Positions 2,939-32,166 of a stretch of 32,166 nt of DNA are shown piece after piece; within the stretch, counting starts at the first letter, position 1, and every line of letters starts with the position of its first letter. The translations under genes were made by a program, and so were the position numbers. Source of the stretch: a bacterium (GTDB lineage Bacteria; Bacillota_I; Bacilli_A; RF39; UBA660); assembly GCA_029007415.1 (NCBI GenBank), contig JAQXHT010000051.1, forward strand, positions 1-32,166, written 5' to 3'. The notes under the pieces were generated by a model. That model saw nothing but the letters and a program-made list of their open reading frames with translations. It was not told the origin of the DNA and searched no databases.

Positions 2939-2947
2939 ATTTTCCTC

Positions 2948-4102
2948 CTAATGAACATAAAATATTCCCATATAGATTAAAAAGGCTAAGTAAAGAAGAC
3001 AAGTAATCGCTCCATTTACTCTTTCAAAAGTGCTACTTTTATATTGAACACCAACAGCAGTTGTCATAAAGACACCACCGATTAAACCACCAATATGTGC
3101 AGCATTATCAATTCCTGGTACAAGAAAACCTAAGATAAGGTTTAAAGCTATTAAAGGAATTATCTGACTTTTAATGACTGTTCCTAAGTAAACACGGTAG
3201 TGATAACCAAAGTAAACCATTGAACCAAGAAGTCCAAAGATAGCTCCACTTGCTCCAACACTAACACTAGTGCTAGAAACAATAATGGATAGTAGTGAAG
3301 CAGTTACGGCACTAAATAAGTAAACAAGTAAATATTTCCATCTACCAAGAAAACTTTCTAATTGAACACCAATAATCCATAAAGCATACATATTGAAAGC
3401 TAAATGAGCAATATTAGCATGAACAAAGGTACCTGTTAATAAACGGTAATATTCCCCTTGTTTAATATAAGGACCAAATACTGCTAACTCTCTAAAGACA
3501 TCATCACTTTTCCCAAGTAATAAAGGAACAAAGAAAAGAGCAACATTTAAAAATACTAAGATAGCAGTAATAATTGCTTTCTTTGGCATAAATATTTTAT
3601 CCGTTTTCGTATGGTCTTGATAGTTATGTTCATTTATTTCATCAGTTATCTTAATAAATAAATCCGCACCTGTTTCTTTATTTTTGCTAATATTTTTATA
3701 TAAATCTGGATAAGCTTCTAATAATAATTTATTATTCTTAACATCTTTTTCATCAGTTATATGAACAGCTCTTCCTCTTTTTGGTAACTCTTTAGTAAGG
3801 TCTACACTACTTCCTAGATTTAAAAAGATACTTAAGACATTTAGTCTAAAAGAAAATGTTTTAGCTTTAATTTTCTTTATTATACGATTAGTTTTAAAAA
3901 CATCAAACTTATATTGTTCTTCATTATGGATATGACCGATTACTATTCTTATTATTTCACAATCTTCATCTAAATTTTCTAACCAAATCTCATCATCTAC
4001 ACCATTTAATACTATTGGTGTATAATTCTTTTCAGTTATAAAATAATGAAGAAGTTTCATAGCAATCATATTAGTGTCATCTATTTCAAGCACATTATTC
4101 AT
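2948..4102 (-). CDS. Rhomboid family intramembrane serine protease (GluP/YqgP-like)
   Basis: HLAFNM, GASGAIFG, AHIGG motifs; N-terminal soluble domain. Confidence 0.93.
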   Translation of the reverse strand: MNNVLEIDDTNMIAMKLLHYFITEKNYTPIVLNGVDDEIWLENLDEDCEIIRIVIGHIHNEEQYKFDVFKTNRIIKKIKAKTFSFRLNVLSIFLNLGSSVDLTKELPKRGRAVHITDEKDVKNNKLLLEAYPDLYKNISKNKETGADLFIKITDEINEHNYQDHTKTDKIFMPKKAIITAILVFLNVALFFVPLLLGKSDDVFRELAVFGPYIKQGEYYRLLTGTFVHANIAHLAFNMYALWIIGVQLESFLGRWKYLLVYLFSAVTASLLSIIVSSTSVSVGASGAIFGLLGSMVYFGYHYRVYLGTVIKSQIIPLIALNLILGFLVPGIDNAAHIGGLIGGVFMTTAVGVQYKSSTFERVNGAITCLLYLAFLIYMGIFYVH

Positions 4103-4147
4103 TAATTCATCACCCTTCTTCTTTCAAGTATTATACACGAATTTACG

Positions 4148-5023
4148 TTAATTCTCAAGAGAAGCAAGTTCATCTTGAAATTCTTTTGGTGGTTCTTTCG
4201 TAAACTCTAAATGTTCTTTAGTTAATGGTTCTACTAGTTCTATCTTGTAGCTATGAAGCATTTGACCAAAACTAGTTGTTTTTTTACTATGACCATAGAC
4301 TGGATCGTTTACAACCGGATGATTGATATAAGCTAAATGAACTCTAATCTGATGCGTTCTTCCCGTATCAAGCTGACACTCTATCAAAGTTTTATTTTGA
4401 TATCTTTTAAGAACTTTAAAGTGAGTAACTGCTTCTTTTCCTCCTGCTATTACTTTCATCTTAAGTCTATCTTTAGGATCTCTTCCAATCGGTGCATCAA
4501 TAGTTCCTCTAGCTGGTTTAATAACTCCTTCAACCAAAGCAAGATAAGTTCTTTTTACTTCTTTTTTCTTTAACATTAGACTTAAAGCTTCTTTCGTTTC
4601 TTCATTTTTTGCTACTAACATTAAACCACTAGTATCTTTATCTAAACGATGAACAATACCAGGTCTTAATAAATCATCTGTTAAAGGATAATCTACTAGT
4701 AAGGCATTTACTAACGTATCATTCATATGACCAGGAGCAGGATGAACAACTAAACCGCTTTGTTTATTGATAATTAACAAATTTTCATCTTCAAAAACAA
4801 TATCAAGTGGTATTTCCTTCTTTTCTAAATTACTAGTTACTTCTTCTTTTAAGACTTCGATAATGTCACCTTTAGCAACTTGGTAATTACAACTAATCTC
4901 TTTATTATTAACTAAGACTTTACCATCTTTTATCTTACGTTGTATTTTACTTCTAGATTCTTCTAACATATTACTTAAAACAACATCTATTCTTCCAGTT
5001 TCATCATTTATTTCTAACTTCAT
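4148..5023 (-). CDS. rluD: RluA/RluD family pseudouridine synthase
   Basis: S4 domain, VHRLDKDTSG, TGRTHQIRVH; start moved to ATG 5023 (MKLEIND) after an RBS-like gggtga. Confidence 0.92.
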   Translation of the reverse strand: MKLEINDETGRIDVVLSNMLEESRSKIQRKIKDGKVLVNNKEISCNYQVAKGDIIEVLKEEVTSNLEKKEIPLDIVFEDENLLIINKQSGLVVHPAPGHMNDTLVNALLVDYPLTDDLLRPGIVHRLDKDTSGLMLVAKNEETKEALSLMLKKKEVKRTYLALVEGVIKPARGTIDAPIGRDPKDRLKMKVIAGGKEAVTHFKVLKRYQNKTLIECQLDTGRTHQIRVHLAYINHPVVNDPVYGHSKKTTSFGQMLHSYKIELVEPLTKEHLEFTKEPPKEFQDELASLEN

Positions 5024-5471
5024 TTTTTTCACCCTTCCATAGTTCATAGATAAGTAGTAAAACTCCAATCACAATTAGCATATCAGCAAAATTAAAAATT
5101 GGAAAGTGATAATTAAATATTATAACACTAATATAATCAATTACATAATTAAGTACTAAACGGTCATAGAAATTACCAAGTATTCCTCCTAGAATCATTA
5201 TATAAGAGATATTTAGTAATGTTTTATTTTTCTTACTTATTAGTTCTTTATAAATTACTAAAAATGCTAGTAAGGAAAGAATAGCAAGAAGAGTGGTTTT
5301 TCCTTCCATAAGAGAAAAAGCCGCTCCAATATTTTTTACATAGACTAAAGATACGAAGTTTGGTATTAGAGTAACAGTGCCTTTTAGGTAATTAACTACT
5401 AATACTTTAAATAATCTATCTATTAAAAATAAAATAATTATTACTACCGTATATTTTAGCTTATCTTTCAT
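5004..5471 (-). CDS. lspA: Lipoprotein signal peptidase II
   Basis: NIGAAFS, GGILGNFYDR, VIDY, FNFAD; lspA-rluD synteny; start taken at ATG 5471 after aggtg. Confidence 0.94.
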   Translation of the reverse strand: MKDKLKYTVVIIILFLIDRLFKVLVVNYLKGTVTLIPNFVSLVYVKNIGAAFSLMEGKTTLLAILSLLAFLVIYKELISKKNKTLLNISYIMILGGILGNFYDRLVLNYVIDYISVIIFNYHFPIFNFADMLIVIGVLLLIYELWKGEKNEVRNK

Positions 5472-24933: not shown

Positions 24934-25575
24934 TTAATCTCTATCATTACCACCAATAAGTTGTAAAATATAGACAAAAATATTAATAAAATCTAAGTAT
25001 AATTGAAATGCTCCAAAAATGGCACCCTTATCTTCACCTAAACTATCAAGAAGAACTGGTAGTTTTTTAGTGTCATAGGCAACATAACCGATAAATGCAA
25101 TCATTCCAAGAATACAAAGAACTAAATCTGCTGTACTACTTCCAACAAAGATATTAATGATACTTGCAATAATTATTCCTATTAACATCATAAGTAAAAT
25201 ATTACCTAGCTTGTCCAAAGACATTTTAGTAACTGTTCCAAATAAAGCAAATAAGCCAAACACAATCGCTGTTACTAAAAAGACTAGTATTAAACTCTTA
25301 AGTTCAAATGCTATGAATAGTGTTGAAAATGTAATTCCTGTAATAAATGAATATAACAAGTAACAAAATATCGCCGTCTGTTTGCTCATTTTGTGAATTC
25401 TAGCTGAGAAAAAGAAAGCAACTCCTAATTCTATTAGGATAATAATTATATAACTTGCTCCACTCATTAGATTAATGATAGCATTTTCATAATTTGATAG
25501 TACCATACCAGTTGCAAAAGTAAGTAATAGACCAGCAAATAACCAACCATATACTTTTGAATACAACTTCTCCAT
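24934..25575 (-). CDS. Bax inhibitor-1/YccA family membrane protein
   Basis: About 7 TM helices, AYDT and LYLDFINIF. Confidence 0.92.
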   Translation of the reverse strand: MEKLYSKVYGWLFAGLLLTFATGMVLSNYENAIINLMSGASYIIIILIELGVAFFFSARIHKMSKQTAIFCYLLYSFITGITFSTLFIAFELKSLILVFLVTAIVFGLFALFGTVTKMSLDKLGNILLMMLIGIIIASIINIFVGSSTADLVLCILGMIAFIGYVAYDTKKLPVLLDSLGEDKGAIFGAFQLYLDFINIFVYILQLIGGNDRD

Positions 25576-25629
25576 TTTATCCTCCTTCCCTTTTAGTATA
25601 GCATATTTGATTTATCTTTACCAATATGC

Positions 25630-26169
25630 TTATTTTGTTTTATTAAGAATTAGAATAAACTTATCGCCATATTTTCTTTCTTTATATATGGTATAATATT
25701 CACCATAAACAAATTTGTCTTTACTACTACTTTCTAAAATAACTAAACCATCAGTATTTAACAAATCATTCTTTTCTATTAGAATAAGAGCTTCTTTAAT
25801 ATAATCTGTTTTATACGGTGGATCAATAAAGATTAAATCATATTTATTAGTTGTTTCCTTCAAGAATTTACGGAAATCAATTAAATAGACAGTGTCTAAC
25901 TTTTCCCCTAAATTAGTTAAATTATTCTTGATAGTTTTAATAGCTATTTTGTTTTCATCAATGAAGGTACAACTCTTTCCTCCTTCACTTAATGCTTCTA
26001 AACCTAGATTACCACTACCTGCAAAAAGGTCAAGACAATTACTATCTTTAATATAATTTTGAATCATGGCAAATAAAGATTCTTTCACCCTATCCATAGT
26101 AGGTCTTGTTCCTTCTATATCATAACCAATAATATTTCTTCCTTTATATTTACCACTAATTATTTTCAT
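25630..26169 (-). CDS. rsmD: 16S rRNA (guanine(966)-N2)-methyltransferase
   Basis: TRPTMDRVKESLF, LDLFAGSG, DPPY. Confidence 0.95.
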   Translation of the reverse strand: MKIISGKYKGRNIIGYDIEGTRPTMDRVKESLFAMIQNYIKDSNCLDLFAGSGNLGLEALSEGGKSCTFIDENKIAIKTIKNNLTNLGEKLDTVYLIDFRKFLKETTNKYDLIFIDPPYKTDYIKEALILIEKNDLLNTDGLVILESSSKDKFVYGEYYTIYKERKYGDKFILILNKTK

Positions 26170-26422
26170 CTTTAATCTCTCCTAAGTATTTATTACAAGA
26201 TAATATCAAAAAGTTAAGTCGATTTTCTAGCATTTTATATTTTTTGTATTTCTCATCATTATATATTTCTTTTCTAATCGTTTCATTATAAGTATTATGA
26301 TACTCATCTATCTTAGCAATTAGTTCTTTATCTTCATAAATACTAGCAAGACTTTTCTTAATTTCAAACTTTATCTCCGAATTATCAATCATATCAACTA
26401 GTTCATAATAAGTTCCAATCAT
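26156..26422 (-). CDS. Small helical protein, possibly YlbF/YmcA-like
   Basis: Overlaps rsmD start; Y..YK.LEN.LN pattern; family uncertain. Confidence 0.5.
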   Translation of the reverse strand: MIGTYYELVDMIDNSEIKFEIKKSLASIYEDKELIAKIDEYHNTYNETIRKEIYNDEKYKKYKMLENRLNFLILSCNKYLGEIKDENN

Positions 26423-26472
26423 CTGTTAACCACTTCCGTCATTATTATAACAAATACTTAATCAAGAGAAAA

Positions 26473-27600
26473 CTATCTTTTCATTTTTAAATCATTACGA
26501 TAGCAGAAACTACCGCTATCAGCACTTTTTAGAAAGCCATTATAACTTGCTAAGGTTTGTTCTAACTTTTCTGGTTCATGTTTTCTAACGTATTTTACTC
26601 GTTTTTTTATTTTTCGTTTAGTCTTGCCATTTATTAGCATTAATAGTCTTTTATTCTTTAAAACAAAGCGATACCCTAGAAAACAAAAGCCATGATGAAT
26701 TTCTACTATCTGTGTCTTTCTATTAAGTTTTAGTTTTACTTCATCTAATTTCTTTTCTATTTCTTTTAAACAGTATTTAAGATATTCTCTATCTTCATGA
26801 AATAAAATGAAATCATCCATATATCTAACGTAGCATTTTATTCTTAGCTTTTCTTTAATAAAATGATCTAAGTCATTTAAATAATAAACTGCTAATATTT
26901 GACTAGTCATATTACCTATTGGTAGTCCTTTTCCTTTTTGATAAAGTGGTATTGATTCAAGAGACTTAATATGACTTTCGCAATCTCTAATACCTAGTTT
27001 TTTAACTCTTTCAATTTCACTTTCTACTGATTTTTTAATTTCTTCATTAACATAATTATAATTAGTACTAATAATTATTTCTTTTACCATATTAAATATA
27101 CGTTCATCTTTAATAAGCTTAGTTAGCTTATCAAGAAGTATTTCTTGGTCTATTGAATAAAAGTATTTTGATATATCACATTTAAGTACATATATTTTAT
27201 CATGATTTTCCTTCATTTTATTAATGTACTTTTTCACATAATATATTCCTTTACTTGAACCCATAAGTGGTCTTGTAGCTACATTCATTGGTAGTAAAAG
27301 TGGATCAATTAAAGGAAAAAGAAAATAAGTACTAACTAAGTGATTAACTATTTTATCTGGCATTGTTTCACTCATAATCAAACGATATTTCGGCTCTTTA
27401 ATTATAAAGATATGATATTTTTGATGATGATAAGCTTCCTCTTTTAAGGTATTGTAAATTGACATAATATTGCAAGAAAAAAATAGTTCAAATATGAAAA
27501 TCTTATCCTTGTGTTTAGTATTTTTGCGAACGGTATTATAAACATTAGTAAGATTTTCTATCGTAACTACTTCTTCATAACTAAGTGCTTTGCTTTTCAC
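26473..27600 (-). CDS. DGR reverse transcriptase
   Basis: KCDISKYF, GLPIGNMTSQ (DGR-type GxxxSQ), YVRYMDDF, FLGY; 375 aa with no maturase or endonuclease domain. Confidence 0.95.
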   Translation of the reverse strand: MKSKALSYEEVVTIENLTNVYNTVRKNTKHKDKIFIFELFFSCNIMSIYNTLKEEAYHHQKYHIFIIKEPKYRLIMSETMPDKIVNHLVSTYFLFPLIDPLLLPMNVATRPLMGSSKGIYYVKKYINKMKENHDKIYVLKCDISKYFYSIDQEILLDKLTKLIKDERIFNMVKEIIISTNYNYVNEEIKKSVESEIERVKKLGIRDCESHIKSLESIPLYQKGKGLPIGNMTSQILAVYYLNDLDHFIKEKLRIKCYVRYMDDFILFHEDREYLKYCLKEIEKKLDEVKLKLNRKTQIVEIHHGFCFLGYRFVLKNKRLLMLINGKTKRKIKKRVKYVRKHEPEKLEQTLASYNGFLKSADSGSFCYRNDLKMKR

Positions 27601-27937
27601 TCCTAATCACCCCATAAGAAATTTTTCTGATTTCAATTAAAAAATTACTAACTGACTCGTACTTCTTATGGCTAATAATTTTTTTCTTATAACTAACATG
27701 CATATAATAATCGAGCATAGAAATTTGAATAACTAGTGCTTTTAGATATTTAAGTTTAATTCTATTAGTATCCTCGATTCGGTAAGAAAAAATATTTTCA
27801 ATTATCAAATACATAGTTTTTTCGATATTTTGTTTTAATATCACTTCATTTTTAGGATAGTTAATTAATTGTTTGTTAATATAATCAATCGTTTTTTCAC
27901 TATTAGATAAAAGTCTAAAACTATCATTGGAGTCCAT
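27581..27937 (-). CDS. avd: DGR accessory variability determinant (four-helix bundle)
   Basis: 118-aa basic helical protein with YPKNE..L and KIISHKKYE..EI.K..G pattern; overlaps RT start by 20 nt. Confidence 0.85.
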   Translation of the reverse strand: MDSNDSFRLLSNSEKTIDYINKQLINYPKNEVILKQNIEKTMYLIIENIFSYRIEDTNRIKLKYLKALVIQISMLDYYMHVSYKKKIISHKKYESVSNFLIEIRKISYGVIRSEKQST

Positions 27938-28331
27938 CGATAAACTCCTTAATTTTATTATAATTTTCAGAACTATTAGAAATTAACATTTCAATTCTTT
28001 TCATTAATAATTCATGGGAACATTTGCTGTAATAACTTTTCTGAGCAATAGCTGATATATCTTTATATAGATTATCATCACTCATATAACTAGTTATTTC
28101 TTCATTTTCTACGATGTAAAAAGAAATATTCTTATCACGTAAATTTTTTGTTACTTTAGTAAGTGCTGCTACTGGGAATCCTAATTTTTCATTATTAATT
28201 TGGTATGAAAAAAGATAATTCATAGTTATAGCATCAAATCCAAAAGTAACATAAAAACTGCCTACTTTTAAGAGAACTATTTCTTCTTGATGTTGTTTTT
28301 TCAACTCTTCATACTTTTCTTTTACTTTCAT
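27924..28331 (-). CDS. Stand-alone MutS domain I-like DGR accessory protein
   Basis: Y..LK......LLKVGSFYVTFGFDA and GFP motifs; start at ATG 28331 after aggag, giving 135 aa. Confidence 0.8.
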   Translation of the reverse strand: MKVKEKYEELKKQHQEEIVLLKVGSFYVTFGFDAITMNYLFSYQINNEKLGFPVAALTKVTKNLRDKNISFYIVENEEITSYMSDDNLYKDISAIAQKSYYSKCSHELLMKRIEMLISNSSENYNKIKEFIDGLQ

Positions 28332-28348
28332 TTTACTCCTATAATAGT

Positions 28349-28734
28349 TATGCCAAAGATTAATCTTGTTTCCAATCTTTAGATTATGAGTTATATCATT
28401 ACTTCCTCTAGTTACCAACCTTAATCAATAACATACGGTTAGATTAGCAATAATTATACTAATTCGTAGTAGGAATCTGGACGGGCCCCGAAGGAATTCG
28501 TGACGTTGTTCCAATGATTCAGACTGCCTGAAGGATTCACGTTCCAAACGTTCGCATTAGAGTTGTTAGACTCAAAGTTAGACGGAGACAGCGAAGTTCT
28601 AAGCTCTGAATGCAACACAAACCTGAAAGGTCCGTTAGTAGATTAACCTCACTTACTATATTTTTTCAATGTATCAATATTTTCTCAAATAATAATATTA
28701 GCTAAGAAAAGTATACATTATTTTTTCTGGCATA
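28349..28734 (-). ncRNA. DGR template cassette 1 (TR1 28477-28592)
   Basis: TR reads LSPSNFESNNSNANVWNVNPSGSLNHWNNVTNSFGARP; bounded by tatgcca/tggcata. Confidence 0.88.
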
Positions 28735-29363
28735 TAGTTTTTAAAGTAGATTTTAGTTAAATTGCAAGAATTACTAATTTACCTATATATGATGTTAGTT
28801 TTATTTTATAGATAAACGGATACTTACATGTCATATGACAGATATTTTTAAGTAAAACTATGCATGACACAAATTATTTTTCACTACTAGCATATTAGTA
28901 AATATGCCTTACTAGCTCCTATGGTATTTAATTATCTTTAGTAGTTAAATTTAACTGTAATAAACAACTATATATATTATTATCAGTCTTTTTCATAATC
29001 CGTACGAGGTGTCATTACCCCTGTTTCTTTCCGTTAGTATCTATTAGTGTCAAATAATAGATATATTACTCCGCTATAAGTTTTGTATTTTGAGTTATTT
29101 TCTTAATTTATATTAGTATTAAAATAATACAAAAATAAATTTCTTTCTATATCTTTTAATAATAGTAAAAAGTATTTTAAAGATTATAGATAAAGTCATT
29201 ACTCAAAACAAAATTACCATATTTTACCATAGATTTCCCCTCATCATCCATAATAATGGTAACATATCGTTTGAGAATTTTCAATATTTATTCTCAAGTA
29301 TGAATATATTTATACAAGAAAAAAAGCAAAAACTTTTTTAATAATTTTTACTTTTGTTATTGT

Positions 29364-29742
29364 TATGCCAAAGATTAATCTTGTTTCCAATCTTACAGAT
29401 TATGAGTTGGCTCATTACTTCCTCTAGTTATTAACCTTAATCAATAACATACGGTTAGATTAGCAATGATTATACTAATTTGTAGTAGGAATCTGGACGG
29501 GCCCCGAAGGAATTCGTGACGTTGTTTCCGTTATTCAAGCTGCCTGAAGGATTCACGTTCCAAACATTTGCATTAGAGTTGTTTGAATTGAAGTTAGACG
29601 GAGACAGCAAACTTCTAAAAACTAATACTAGAAGGAAAAAACCGTTATTAGACTAACCTTATTTATATTCTTTTAATGTACCAATATTTTCTTGAATAGT
29701 TAACACCAGTCAAAAAAAGTATACATCATATTTCTTGGCATA
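29364..29742 (-). ncRNA. DGR template cassette 2 (TR2 29493-29608)
   Basis: TR reads LSPSNFNSNNSNANVWNVNPSGSLNNGNNVTNSFGARP; bounded by tatgccaa/ttggcata. Confidence 0.88.
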
Positions 29743-29774
29743 GTATTTAAAAACTACTTTGTCTTAATTATGGT

Positions 29775-30156
29775 TATGCCAAAGATTAATCTTGTTTCCA
29801 ATCTTACAGATTATGAGTTATCTCATTACTTCCTCTAGTTACCAACCTTAATCAATAACATACGGTTTAGATTAGCAATAATTGTACTAACTTGTAGTAG
29901 GAATCTGGACGGGCCCCGAAGGAATTCGTGACGTTATTCCAGTCAATCAGACCGCCCGAAGGAAGGACGTTCCAAACGTTCGCATTAGAGTTGTTTGAAT
30001 TGAAGTTAGACGGAGACAGCAAACTTCTAAAAACTAATGCTAGAAAAAGTCTAAAACCGTTATTAGATTAACCTTTATCATTTTCTTTTAATGTACCAAT
30101 ATTTTTTTAAATAATTAGTTTAGCTAAAAAACGTATACATTATTTTTTTTGGCATA
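29775..30156 (-). ncRNA. DGR template cassette 3 (TR3 29905-30020), cognate template of the visible VR
   Basis: TR reads LSPSNFNSNNSNANVWNVLPSGGLIDWNNVTNSFGARP; 15 mismatches to VR, all at TR adenines. Confidence 0.95.
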
Positions 30157-30232
30157 ACATAGGAAAAATAATACTCCTTTATTTTTTTAAATGCAAGCGA
30201 TTTTATATTTTAAAAATAAACAATTATAGCTT

Positions 30233-30591
30233 GTGTCAAAGATTAATCTTGTTTCCAATCTTACAGATTATGAGTTAGCTCATTACTTCCTCTAGTTAGT
30301 AACCTTAATCAATAACATACGGTTTAGATTAGCAATGATTATACTAATTTGTAGTAGGAATCTGGACGGGCCCCGAAGGAATTTGTTACATCACGATTAT
30401 TCAGGCTGCCTGAAGAAAACACGCTCCAAATATCTATTATAGAATAATTAGAATTGAAATAAAACGGAGACAGCAATATCTTTAATGCTTAGAACCTCGC
30501 ATTAGATTAACCTTGTTATTATTGCAATGTACAAATATTTTCTTAGCAATAATTATTAACTGAGAAAAGTATACATTATTTTTTCTGACAC
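30233..30591 (-). ncRNA. DGR template cassette 4 (TR4 30362-30474)
   Basis: TR reads LSPFYFNSNYSIIDIWSVFSSGSLNNRDVTNSFGARP (one codon shorter); bounded by gtgtca/tgacac. Confidence 0.82.
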
Positions 30592-30627
30592 TTTTGATAG
30601 AAAAATTATATTTTTATTTAAAATTAA

Positions 30628-31011
30628 TATGCCAAAGATTAATCTTGTTTCCAATCTTTTAGATTATGAGTTAGCTCATTACTTCCTCTAGTTATTAACC
30701 TTAATCAATAACATACGGTTTAGATTAGCAATGATTATACTAATTTGTAGTAGGAATCTGGACGGGCCCCGAAGGAATTCTCGACACTACCCCAATGATT
30801 CAACATGCCTGAAGGATTCACGTTCCAAACATTCGCACTAGAGTTATTTGAATTGAAGTTAGACGGAGACAGCGAACTTCTAAAACTAATGCTAGAATGG
30901 ATCAAAACCGCTATTAGATTAACCTTATATTATTTTTTATTATCAATGCACCAATATTCTTACAAATAGTATTATTAGTTATAAGATGTATACATTATTT
31001 TTTCTGGCATA
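30628..31011 (-). ncRNA. DGR template cassette 5 (TR5 30758-30873)
   Basis: TR reads LSPSNFNSNNSSANVWNVNPSGMLNHWGSVENSFGARP; bounded by tatgcca/tggcata. Confidence 0.88.
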
Positions 31012-31036
31012 AAATAATTTTGATATTTATATAGTA

Positions 31037-31399
31037 GTGCCAAAGATTAATCTTGTTTCCAATCTTACAGATTATGAGTTAGCTCATTACTTCCTCTAGT
31101 TACCAACCTTAATCAATAACATACGGTTAGATTAGCAATGATTATACTAATTTGTAGTAGGAATCTGGACGGGCCCCGAAGGAATTATTGACGTTATTCC
31201 AGTCAAGACTGCCTGAAGGCTGCACCGTCCAAACGTTAGCGTGAGAATTACCTGAGTTGAATTTAGACGGAGACAGTGAAAAAGAAATCCAAGTGAGAGA
31301 ACCGTTTTTAGATTAACCTTTTCTTTATGTTCAATGTACCAATATTTTTTCTGAATAATTAATTTAATCAAAGAAAGTATACATTATTTTTTCTGGCAC
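31037..31399 (-). ncRNA. DGR template cassette 6 (TR6 31165-31277)
   Basis: TR reads LSPSKFNSGNSHANVWTVQPSGSLDWNNVNNSFGARP (one codon shorter); bounded by gtgcca/tggcac. Confidence 0.86.
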
Positions 31400-31441
31400 G
31401 TTTTAAGTAATATAAATTTTTTCAAATATATTTTATAGATG

Positions 31442-31810
31442 TATGCCAAAGATTAATCTTGTTTCCAATCTTTAGATTATGAGTTAACTCATTACTTCCT
31501 CTAGTTATCAACCTTAATCAATAACATACGGTTAGATTAGCAATGATTATACTAATTTGTAGTAGGAATCTGGACGGGCCCCGAAGGAATTTGCAACATA
31601 CGTCCAATCATTCAGACTGCCCGAAGGATTCACGTTCCAAACGTTCGACTGTGAGTTGTTTGAATCGAAGTTAGACGGAGACAGCGAAAGGACAAACAAA
31701 CAGAAAGAGTCCGTTAGTAGATTAACCTTATTTATATTTATTTAATGCATCAATATTCTTACAAATAATTATATTAGTTGCAAGATGTATACATTACCTT
31801 TTCTGGCATA
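31442..31810 (-). ncRNA. DGR template cassette 7 (TR7 31570-31685)
   Basis: TR reads LSPSNFDSNNSQSNVWNVNPSGSLNDWTYVANSFGARP; bounded by tatgcca/tggcata. Confidence 0.88.
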
Positions 31811-31816
31811 AATTAA

Positions 31817-31842
31817 AGGCAAAATGATGAGTCATTTTGCCT
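31817..31842 (-). terminator. Perfect hairpin after target gene (terminator and/or DGR homing hairpin)
   Basis: aggcaaaatga-tgag-tcattttgcct: 11-bp stem, 4-nt loop, 5 nt past the stop codon. Confidence 0.7.
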
Positions 31843-31847
31843 AGAAA

Positions 31848-32165
31848 CTAACTTATTGAAACAACATATGGATTTAAAGCAGTTCCATCTCCCTTGGTTA
31901 TCAGTGTATCAGCCTTTAGGTTGATAACTGGACGGGCCCCGAAGGAAGACGAGACGTAAATCCAGTCAAGCAGACCGCCCGAAGGAAGGACGTACCAAAC
32001 GTACGCAAGAGAGTAGTATGAAGAGAAGTAAGACGGAGACAGCGTCCAGAAATATTGGCCATTATATAGATAATAATTACTATTTGCTGTATTATATACT
32101 CCTCCAGCCATTGCTACTTCATCGGCTGTGATAAGTGAAACTGGATAGTCTAGTTTGGCACTTGC
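31848..32165 (-). CDS. DGR target protein, C-terminal part (probable C-type lectin-fold variable domain); 5' end outside window
   Basis: Frame open to window edge: ASAKLDYPVSLITADEVAMAGG...FWTLSP[VR]GARPVINL; WxxS...GxRP framing is typical of CLec DGR targets. Confidence 0.9.
   Translation of the reverse strand, partial: ASAKLDYPVSLITADEVAMAGGVYNTANSNYYLYNGQYFWTLSPSYFSSYYSLAYVWYVLPSGGLLDWIYVSSSFGARPVINLKADTLITKGDGTALNPYVVSIS
31928..32043 (-). repeat. DGR variable repeat (VR)
   Basis: 116 bp colinear with TR3; encodes LSPSYFSSYYSLAYVWYVLPSGGLLDWIYVSSSFGARP. Confidence 0.95.
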
Positions 32166-32166
32166 A

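Follow-up and report, generated by a model that had tools for sequence, protein, structure and literature searches.

A chromosomal diversity-generating retroelement with seven tandem template-RNA cassettes in a gut member of the Bacilli

The diversity-generating retroelement (DGR) of the Bordetella phage BPP-1 has the order mtd-avd-TR-brt, with a single template repeat (TR) between avd and the gene for the reverse transcriptase (RT), a single target and no msl gene. With this phage-borne system the locus described here shares an RT together with an Avd-like protein, an A-rich TR, a variable repeat (VR) at the 3' end of the target gene, TR-VR differences restricted to adenines, a GC-rich 3' end common to both repeats, and a structured RNA between the TR and the next gene, a spacer which in BPP-1 has a role in the priming of complementary DNA (cDNA) synthesis. 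The locus lies on contig JAQXHT010000051.1 of assembly GCA_029007415.1 (GTDB lineage Bacteria; Bacillota_I; Bacilli_A; RF39; UBA660), which was analysed over its entire length of 32,166 bp and is called the window in the following. It differs from BPP-1 in being chromosomal and in having seven TR-spacer cassettes upstream of msl-avd-RT as well as many scattered targets.

A small MutS-like gene together with avd is the mark of the MSL-type DGRs, MSL being a named class of DGR accessory gene that is found with avd in 'Architecture D' (PMC5758913). In the window, too, msl lies directly upstream of avd, whereas multi-TR arrays are not described for these DGRs in the available part of that source. 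The DGRs of Treponema denticola and Trichodesmium erythraeum resemble the locus in that one RT locus diversifies many remote paralogous targets; both reuse a single TR, whereas here the target classes match different TRs at non-adenine positions. According to the available part of PMC6596454, the TR RNA of Trichodesmium is a discrete small RNA of 265 nt, similar in size to the TR plus spacer of about 245 nt found here, and at least 12 proteins are diversified by it.

In an earlier note on this stretch of DNA, made from the sequence alone, one TR per RT had been taken as the rule. This holds for the characterised DGRs but is overstated as a general statement, since surveys list DGRs with several TRs. 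In the parts of these sources that were available, 55 out of a set of 271 multi-VR DGRs possess at least two TRs and Stenotrophomonas SKA14 combines two TRs with six VRs (PMC6642488), and the zeta crAss-like phages Lera and ct1yV3 carry three TR-VR pairs (PMC12386605). Like the locus in the window, these DGRs combine a single RT with at least two TRs; unlike the loci compared here, they are counted or drawn in those parts without being analysed. A description of seven to eight tandem complete cassettes, of the assignment of TRs to paralogues, or of non-positional pairing was not found in the available parts of the literature, nor was anything on multi-TR arrays in those of PMC5758913, PMC8144416 and PMC3521204; the supplements may list such loci, and the supplementary lists of PMC5758913 (Tables S1), PMC6642488 and PMC11661182 may hold multi-TR loci, relatives of the present one included.

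Multi-TR DGRs are thus already known, and the window holds one with seven TRs at one RT locus, of which TR1 and TR3 have VRs of their own in the same genome. Judging from sequence comparisons, the element is a chromosomal MSL-type DGR of the order target - TR - msl - avd - RT, and several of its templates have demonstrably been used, as can be read from the VRs that depart from them almost exclusively at adenines.

Layout of the cassette array

The window belongs to a 1.26-Mb metagenome-assembled genome (MAG) with 28% GC, consisting of 125 contigs and rated 77% complete (G000). On the minus strand, the 3' end of a target gene with its VR is followed by a hairpin, the seven cassettes, msl, avd and the RT gene. 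TRs and cassettes are numbered from the RT side, from TR1 (28477-28592) to TR7 (31570-31685), and the features are, in the order of the minus strand:

31848-32166, minus strand: 3' end of the target gene (last 105 codons; coding 31851-32165, stop codon 31848-31850), cut by the contig end
31928-32043, minus strand: VR of this array-adjacent target, a TR3-class copy ending 77 nt ahead of the stop codon at 31848-31850
31817-31842, minus strand: terminator-like hairpin after the target gene and before leader 7 (11-pair stem, 4-nt loop, T-rich tail; from a consensus scan only)
31444-31810, minus strand: cassette 7 (leader 31686-31810, TR7 31570-31685, spacer 31444-31569)
31038-31400, minus strand: cassette 6 (leader 31278-31400, TR6 31165-31277, of the 112-nt class, spacer 31038-31164)
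30630-31011, minus strand: cassette 5 (leader 30874-31011, TR5 30758-30873, spacer 30630-30757)
30234-30592, minus strand: cassette 4 (leader 30475-30592, TR4 30362-30474, of the 112-nt class and the most divergent, spacer 30234-30361)
29777-30156, minus strand: cassette 3 (leader 30021-30156, TR3 29905-30020, spacer 29777-29904), from which both the adjacent VR and the C88 VR derive
29366-29742, minus strand: cassette 2 (leader 29609-29742, TR2 29493-29608, spacer 29366-29492)
28740-29346, minus strand: AT-rich insert of 607 nt with 22% GC between cassettes 2 and 1
28351-28734, minus strand: cassette 1, closest to the RT gene (leader 28593-28734, TR1 28477-28592, spacer 28351-28476)
27924-28334, minus strand: msl, 136 aa, ATG at 28334 (Pfam MutS_I, E = 3e-8, 34.3 bits, cutoff 20.6)
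27581-27937, minus strand: avd, 118 aa, Avd-like by profile match, size and position
26473-27600, minus strand: RT gene, 375 aa (Pfam RVT_1, E = 1.5e-18)

In each cassette, a leader containing three conserved blocks precedes a TR of 112 or 115 nt, which in turn is followed by a spacer of about 130 nt. Counted from the leader block TATGCCAG through the spacer, the cassettes measure 359-384 nt; the TR length is 112 or 115 nt when counted from CTG, and 113 or 116 nt when counted from the G or A preceding CTGTCTCC. Six of the cassettes follow each other directly, and the AT-rich insert, which contains no open reading frame (ORF) of at least 60 aa, sets the RT-proximal cassette 1 apart from cassette 2. 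The distance from one cassette start to the next is accordingly 396-457 nt throughout the array, except for the 1016 nt between cassettes 1 and 2.

The repeats stand out clearly from chance. The 18-nt 3' end of the TRs, CCTTCGGGGCCCGTCCAG, has eight exact copies on the minus strand (seven TRs and one VR) and none in 100 shuffles, and the 5' end, GCTGTCTCCGTCT, has eight copies with at most one mismatch, compared to a shuffle mean of 0.1. The repeat families were recovered by repeat finding as well as by Tandem Repeats Finder, the latter reporting a period of 396 across 30237-31816. In the alignment of the seven cassettes the mean column identity is 82%, with a near-invariant block 3' of every TR. 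While the seven spacers differ by p-distances of only 0.024-0.078, the TR cores differ by 0.146-0.451. The GC-rich 3' end TTCCTTCGGGGCCCGTCCAG is exact in the seven TRs and in the VRs, and homology ends right past it, where TRs go on as ATTCCTAC and VRs as TTATCAAC; when the 3' ends of TRs and VRs were compared, no difference of the kind known as IMH/IMH* (initiation of mutagenic homing) was seen within the repeat itself.

These measurements bear out what the earlier note had described, namely seven units of 359-386 bp (here 359-384 nt), a near-identical segment of about 128 nt 3' of each TR (the spacer of about 130 nt), and TRs of 113 or 116 bp with invariant ends, the same lengths being obtained from the same start. 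The position given there for the array, 28349-31810, is right as well, with the VR (31928-32043) and the genes lying outside it. The reading as a single DGR locus in which the scaffold is constant and the templates vary is likewise supported.

When 21 TR-spacer units taken from 9 genomes are aligned, the spacer consensus shows four hairpins, with compensatory changes in 6 of 42 predicted pairs, from which it appears that the spacer is a conserved structured RNA; Rfam recognised no family over 28200-32166 at E values up to 1. The leader blocks are conserved also in relatives with a single TR, which suggests that it is the whole ancestral RNA gene that has been duplicated. Among the three blocks no -35/-10 pair could be assigned, since their spacing is variable.

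Template classes and their variable repeats

The VR adjacent to the array differs from TR3 at 15 positions, all 15 of them template adenines (hypergeometric P = 1.4e-12), whereas it shows 6-17 non-adenine mismatches to each of the other six TRs. In G000, five sites with a VR-type 3' end were found, at contig ends or nearby, on contigs C51, C88, C77, C25 and C118 (the last one cut). With respect to TR3, the VR on C88 has 13 differences at adenines and none elsewhere (P = 1.1e-10), and the VR on C77 differs from TR1 at 12 adenines and two other positions (P = 3.3e-7). The search for VRs by the TR ends, as proposed in the earlier note, thereby assigned TR3 and TR1 but yielded no VR for TR2, TR4, TR6 or TR7. 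VRs of the TR5 class occur in the sister genome G063, one of the 53 genomes that were compared within the genus. There, one VR fits TR1 (14 adenine and no other differences), one TR3 (13 and 2), and two the TR5 class of G000 (10 and 2, 10 and 3), and one metagenome contig likewise has a TR5-class VR (10 and 2). Three more sites in G063, with imperfect 3' ends, fit no TR (4-9 non-adenine differences).

The relations are clearest in G064, a genome that is 94% complete and has eight templates (T1 to T8) and 15 VRs. Ten of the 15 VRs fit one of the templates T1, T3, T4, T5 and T6 with 0-3 non-adenine differences, their mismatches adding up to 133 at adenines versus 12 elsewhere, and against every other template the same ten VRs have at least six non-adenine or gap differences. 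For T7 and T2, clean VRs were found in metagenome contigs, three for T7 (0-1 non-adenine differences) and one for T2 (2). That there might be dedicated templates for paralogous targets, one of the two possibilities raised in the earlier note, is in keeping with these near adenine-only VRs for TR1, TR3, the TR5 class and five of the eight G064 templates. Within a class, the VRs of different paralogues and of different genomes vary at adenine sites, an indirect sign that mutagenic retrohoming may be ongoing.

None of the 15 templates found in G000 and G064 is interrupted in the frame of the VR. They have 12-15 codons with an A at position 1 or 2, the seven of G000 having 13-15, and differ from each other in fixed residues and in a length of one codon. 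The spacers cluster by genome, with distances of 0.047 and 0.077 within the two genomes versus 0.132 between them. In contrast, the TR cores of TR1 and T1 (0.024) and of TR3 and T6 (0.085) are closer across the genomes than any TR pair within either of them (at least 0.134), and therefore at least two template classes predate the split of the two genomes. On these distances, the scaffold is kept uniform within each genome while the template classes stay old. The core of TR1 is also close (0.073) to the single TR of another genome, G024, so that TR1 likely represents the ancestral template class.

In G024, for which one TR has been assembled, six VR-like sites were scored, one of which is close to this TR (12 adenine and 2 other differences) and two are loose fits (13 and 5, 17 and 6). 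An array-adjacent VR in this genome (L041; contig C14, VR ending at 35990) has an intact 3' end and 16 non-adenine differences from the sole TR; its template has either been lost or is missing from the assembly. On one metagenome contig (L221, 215-324), the array-adjacent target carries a VR of 108 nt which is of the same class as that of the window (T6/TR3 type) and has a 7-nt gap relative to it that would break the frame; this gap could be an assembly error or mark a disrupted allele.

The target genes themselves form a family whose full-length members in relatives have 622-625 aa; their N-terminus is basic and leads into a hydrophobic stretch that, judged by eye, looks like a membrane anchor. 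In DGRs, the variable residues are displayed on a C-type-lectin (or Ig) fold. No match to the target family was found in Pfam, NCBIfam or the PDB sequences, and a PDB profile search gave 0 hits; an AlphaFold2 model of the C-terminal 293 aa, based on an alignment of eight sequences, had a mean predicted local distance difference test (pLDDT) score of 35 and is unusable for the fold. Besides the five VR-bearing copies, G000 has at least six paralogues that lack the shared GC-rich 3' end, and the family is therefore partly outside the reach of the DGR. These six, on C8, C123, C72, C43, C24 and C107, have at least 20 non-adenine differences and match no TR.

Use of the cassettes and choice of template

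The reading that we prefer, and to which we assign a probability of about 0.82, is that of an MSL-type DGR whose entire template-RNA unit, comprising leader, TR and structured spacer, was tandemly duplicated to seven copies and which works by adenine-mutagenic copying and homing. The copies have retained the spacer and both TR ends with hardly any change, while the TR interiors have diverged to distinct in-frame scaffolds. A single RT-Avd(-MSL) complex would bind each cassette RNA via its spacer and copy the TR with adenine-specific errors, and the resulting cDNA would replace any VR having the common 5' end CTGTCTCCGTCT and the common 3' end TTCCTTCGGGGCCCGTCCAG. The last template to rewrite a VR would then set its scaffold class, and adenine mutagenesis would vary the VR afterwards. 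As all TRs and VRs share their ends, the pairing of TRs and VRs is probably not hard-wired. We infer that the cassettes are transcribed and that all seven are active and served by the neighbouring RT.

A number of observations weigh against this reading or parts of it. The VR on C25 fits no TR cleanly, the best match being TR3 with 13 adenine and 5 other differences, and inspection by eye revealed no clean mosaic of two templates either. The avd product scores below the cutoffs of both profiles that it matches, Pfam bAvd (E = 1.9e-7, 32 bits, cutoff 40) and NCBIfam DivGenRetAVD (E = 1.4e-9, 38 bits, cutoff 80). Since there is a second DGR RT in the same genome, on contig C67, it is by adjacency that the array is assigned to one RT. 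A promoter scan returned 21 consensus-like sites where 21.3 are expected in shuffles. Differences in VR class at shared loci can also come from recombination between paralogues, and in two comparisons taken up below the gene body upstream of the VR differs along with the VR.

As to transcription, a bovine metatranscriptome (X20) contains a 153-nt contig identical to spacer 1 plus the last 12 nt of TR1 (28336-28488) and a 235-nt contig across TR3 and its leader (29911-30145) with 12 differences. RNAs of cassette size in a relative are thereby hinted at, though from contigs only, which give neither strand nor ends; X20 covers 8 of 30 bins, and RNA libraries can contain DNA.

The same reading is also burdened by those templates for which a product could not be found, and they are what an alternative, according to which only TR1, TR3 and perhaps TR5 are functional and the rest are near-neutral relics of duplication, would readily account for. 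No VR derived from TR2, TR4, TR6 or TR7 was found in G000, in G063 or among 22 metagenome VRs. For TR4 there is no cognate VR in the 53 genomes, the best match other than itself being 76% identical; moreover, TR4 has a single AAC, is the most divergent of the TRs, and is followed by a spacer with one broken pair in hairpin 2. Cassette 4 may thus be decaying, and some cassettes may be inactive. In G064, T8 has only a poor VR match (11 adenine and 5 other differences). However, the spacers have stayed within 0.024-0.078 of each other and the TR ends are exact, although distances of 0.15-0.45 separate the TR cores and the leaders are variable, and every TR is open in the VR frame despite a genomic GC content of 28%. 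TR7, one of the templates at issue, is 100% identical and its leader 99% identical in two metagenome contigs, which also contain the gene tail at 99-100% identity. Finally, as clean VRs for two G064 templates turned up only outside the assembly of that genome, the absence of a VR from a MAG that is 77% complete is weak evidence. We therefore consider it unlikely that most of the array consists of relics, even though single cassettes may have fallen silent.

If the array is in use, the question arises of how templates and targets are paired. The pairing is not positional, given that the array-adjacent VR of the window derives from TR3 and not from the neighbouring TR7, and that the two array-adjacent VRs of G064 trace back to T5 and T4, not to T8 and T1, respectively. 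The best evidence for the rewriting of one locus from different templates comes from two tandem target genes in G064 whose identity is 98-100% across the approximately 480 nt leading up to the VR and about 90% beyond it, and which carry a T5-class VR of 115 nt and a T3-class VR of 112 nt, respectively, the difference being bounded by the TR boundaries. While this points to template rewriting, an alternative is that the flanks of the two genes were homogenised by gene conversion.

Two further pairs were considered as cases of template switching and set aside. Between C88 of G000 (TR3 class) and C41 of G063 (TR5 class) the downstream flank is 97.5% identical, but the gene body is 55-95% identical and the tail differs, so that an exchange between paralogues explains the pair equally well; the comparison of the window with L187, with 23 differences over 123 upstream positions, is ambiguous in the same way. 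Template choice, the other possibility raised in the earlier note, is accordingly favoured by one near-identical tandem gene pair with different VR classes and left undecided by two other comparisons. In its broadest form, in which cDNA from any of the seven to eight cassettes homes into any of the 10-15 VR-bearing paralogues, free choice would be made possible by the ends common to all TRs and VRs, and we would put it tentatively at somewhat less than even odds.

It could also be supposed that the cassettes are silent DNA donors, the VR classes being spread by recombination or gene conversion and the RT contributing no more than adenine changes copied from a single template. Where shared loci have VRs of different classes, differences are often seen in the upstream gene body too, just as recombination between paralogues would give, and the shared ends would also support conversion at the DNA level. 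By analogy only, the array resembles the pilS/pilE and vls systems, in which an array of unexpressed, diverged donors with common ends feeds surface-protein genes; those silent-cassette systems work by DNA gene conversion, whereas the cassettes of the window would provide RNA templates for an error-prone RT. However, each VR class diverges from its own template in an adenine-restricted manner, which needs error-prone copying of that very template, and every cassette retains a complete structured spacer, which is not required for DNA conversion. A role of the cassettes as mere DNA donors is therefore very improbable.

Relatives of the locus and their implications

Amongst the 53 genomes of the genus, the spacer was found at E <= 1e-10 in 11. 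Eight of these have a single copy, with the order VR - TR - spacer - msl wherever the contig extends far enough, and three have several copies, namely G000 with seven, G063 with at least four (its contig ends within the array) and G064 with eight. G063 aligns with positions 25001-30359 of the window at 94.3% identity and shares with it the order of cassettes 1-3 and the start of cassette 4, the single segments being 97-100% identical and cassettes 2 and 3 being kept with three substitutions each. Furthermore, 18 DNA sequencing runs carry at least 65% of the sampled words of the stretch, and all runs in which it is represented come, taken together, from 11 studies, those that are labelled being gut metagenomes, several of them from pig. 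In contigs from three DNA runs of three studies, every unique piece, defined as a TR with its leader and the junction into the next spacer, was recovered with 0-6 differences, and these contigs break solely inside the repeated spacer. In an RT relative that is a HiFi-assembled chromosome (L117, RT 54% identical), a VR and two TRs lie upstream of the RT gene.

Judging from these comparisons, the seven-cassette array is not an assembly artefact. A chimera in which one TR per strain had been strung together through the shared spacer, as might be suspected from the fragmented MAG (125 contigs) and from a shared block of about 150 nt that exceeds the usual k-mers, has almost no probability left in view of the same cassette order in G063, the eight-cassette set of G064, the junctions of leaders with neighbouring spacers in three runs from three studies, and the two TRs of the HiFi chromosome.

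At 31857-31881, many contigs of three DNA runs share the target 3' end and diverge just past the stop codon, as expected if there are numerous paralogous target loci in those communities.

With regions that precede target genes in G064, the insert between cassettes 1 and 2 shares 73-82% identity, and in G064 the corresponding position is taken up by a complete target gene. The insert is thus probably what is left of the sequence upstream of a target gene that has since been lost, and target A - array - target B - TR1 - msl - avd - RT is the probable ancestral arrangement. Over the array, msl and avd, the window is 97-100% identical per segment to contig C38 of G063, compared to 93% in the RT gene (79 mismatches in 1128 nt), which suggests a recombination boundary near the avd/RT junction.

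With regard to the RT itself, its translation carries the motifs IGNMTSQ and YMDD (in the peptide YMDDFILF), and IGxxxSQ is typical of DGR RTs. The closest solved relative is 8ub7_A, a 'Reverse transcriptase' of 328 aa (E = 2.6e-32), and the entries 8ub7-8ube are those of the BPP-1 RT; group II intron and retron RT structures score only 5e-10 or weaker. In NCBIfam the RT has matches only to other RT classes, all far under their cutoffs. Beyond the RT gene there are ordinary chromosomal genes, including those for an RsmD-like methyltransferase, Bax1-I, Ham1 and an SNF2 helicase.

The second DGR of G000 (L084; contig C67, 8000-15500) is a canonical one with a single TR. On its plus strand are ORFs at 2592-2963, 2947-3282 and 3251-4357, and it comprises a 123-aa ORF, avd (bAvd, E = 6.8e-6) and an RT sharing 41.7% identity with that of the window, followed by repeats at 4802-4909 and 5200-5307. 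Its TR is AAC-rich when read on the minus strand, and a convergent gene of 513 aa has the VR at its 3' end. The two repeats, taken with short flanks, show 43 differences, of which 24 are A-to-N when read on the minus strand, and such changes predominate inside the repeat core. A third RT-like match, 28% identical to the RT of the window, lies on contig C20 (1282-2232).

A survey of RT homologues for multi-TR arrays, which the earlier note had suggested, covered 63 loci with RTs at least 39% identical to that of the window, 35 of which could be scored and 28 could not; L149-L165, with RTs of 33% identity or less, fall outside it. The rule by which a copy was taken as TR-like when followed by TTCC or TTTCC is crude and mislabelled the VR of L104 as a TR. 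At 11 of the 35 scored loci at least two TR-like copies were found, and four more have at least three spacer-start motifs. From this rough survey, the multi-TR architecture would be common among the RT relatives, at about a third of the scorable loci. One relative, L104, has six complete cassettes. A second type of array occurs at L101 (3162-3779), L097 (4592-5138) and L100 (4171-5119), where several TRs follow each other at a spacing of 160-220 nt, with a short leader-like piece after each and a complete spacer after the last one only.

The relatives thereby form a comparative series, from loci with one template via those with two to four templates and one spacer to those with six to eight complete cassettes, which can be used to address RT-Avd recognition, the matching of templates and targets, and the evolution of such arrays. 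Multiplexed DGR-based mutagenesis tools, in which several designed TRs are supplied by hand (according to the available part of bioRxiv 10.64898/2026.07.21.739853), have a natural precedent in the array.

The hosts are abundant, uncultured gut Bacilli with small genomes, and the putatively membrane-anchored targets belong to a family without known function. As characterised DGRs vary only the adenines of the template around one fixed scaffold, an array of diverged templates would lift this limit, and a common recognition scaffold combined with diverged templates would let one set of enzymes serve a whole gene family. If free choice of template holds true, target genes would switch between scaffold classes, with fixed residues and loop lengths that are beyond adenine mutagenesis, and subsequently vary at adenines. 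There would then be two stacked layers of diversification under one RT, with concerted evolution, or co-evolution with the RT, holding the spacers of a genome uniform and with selection keeping the templates different.

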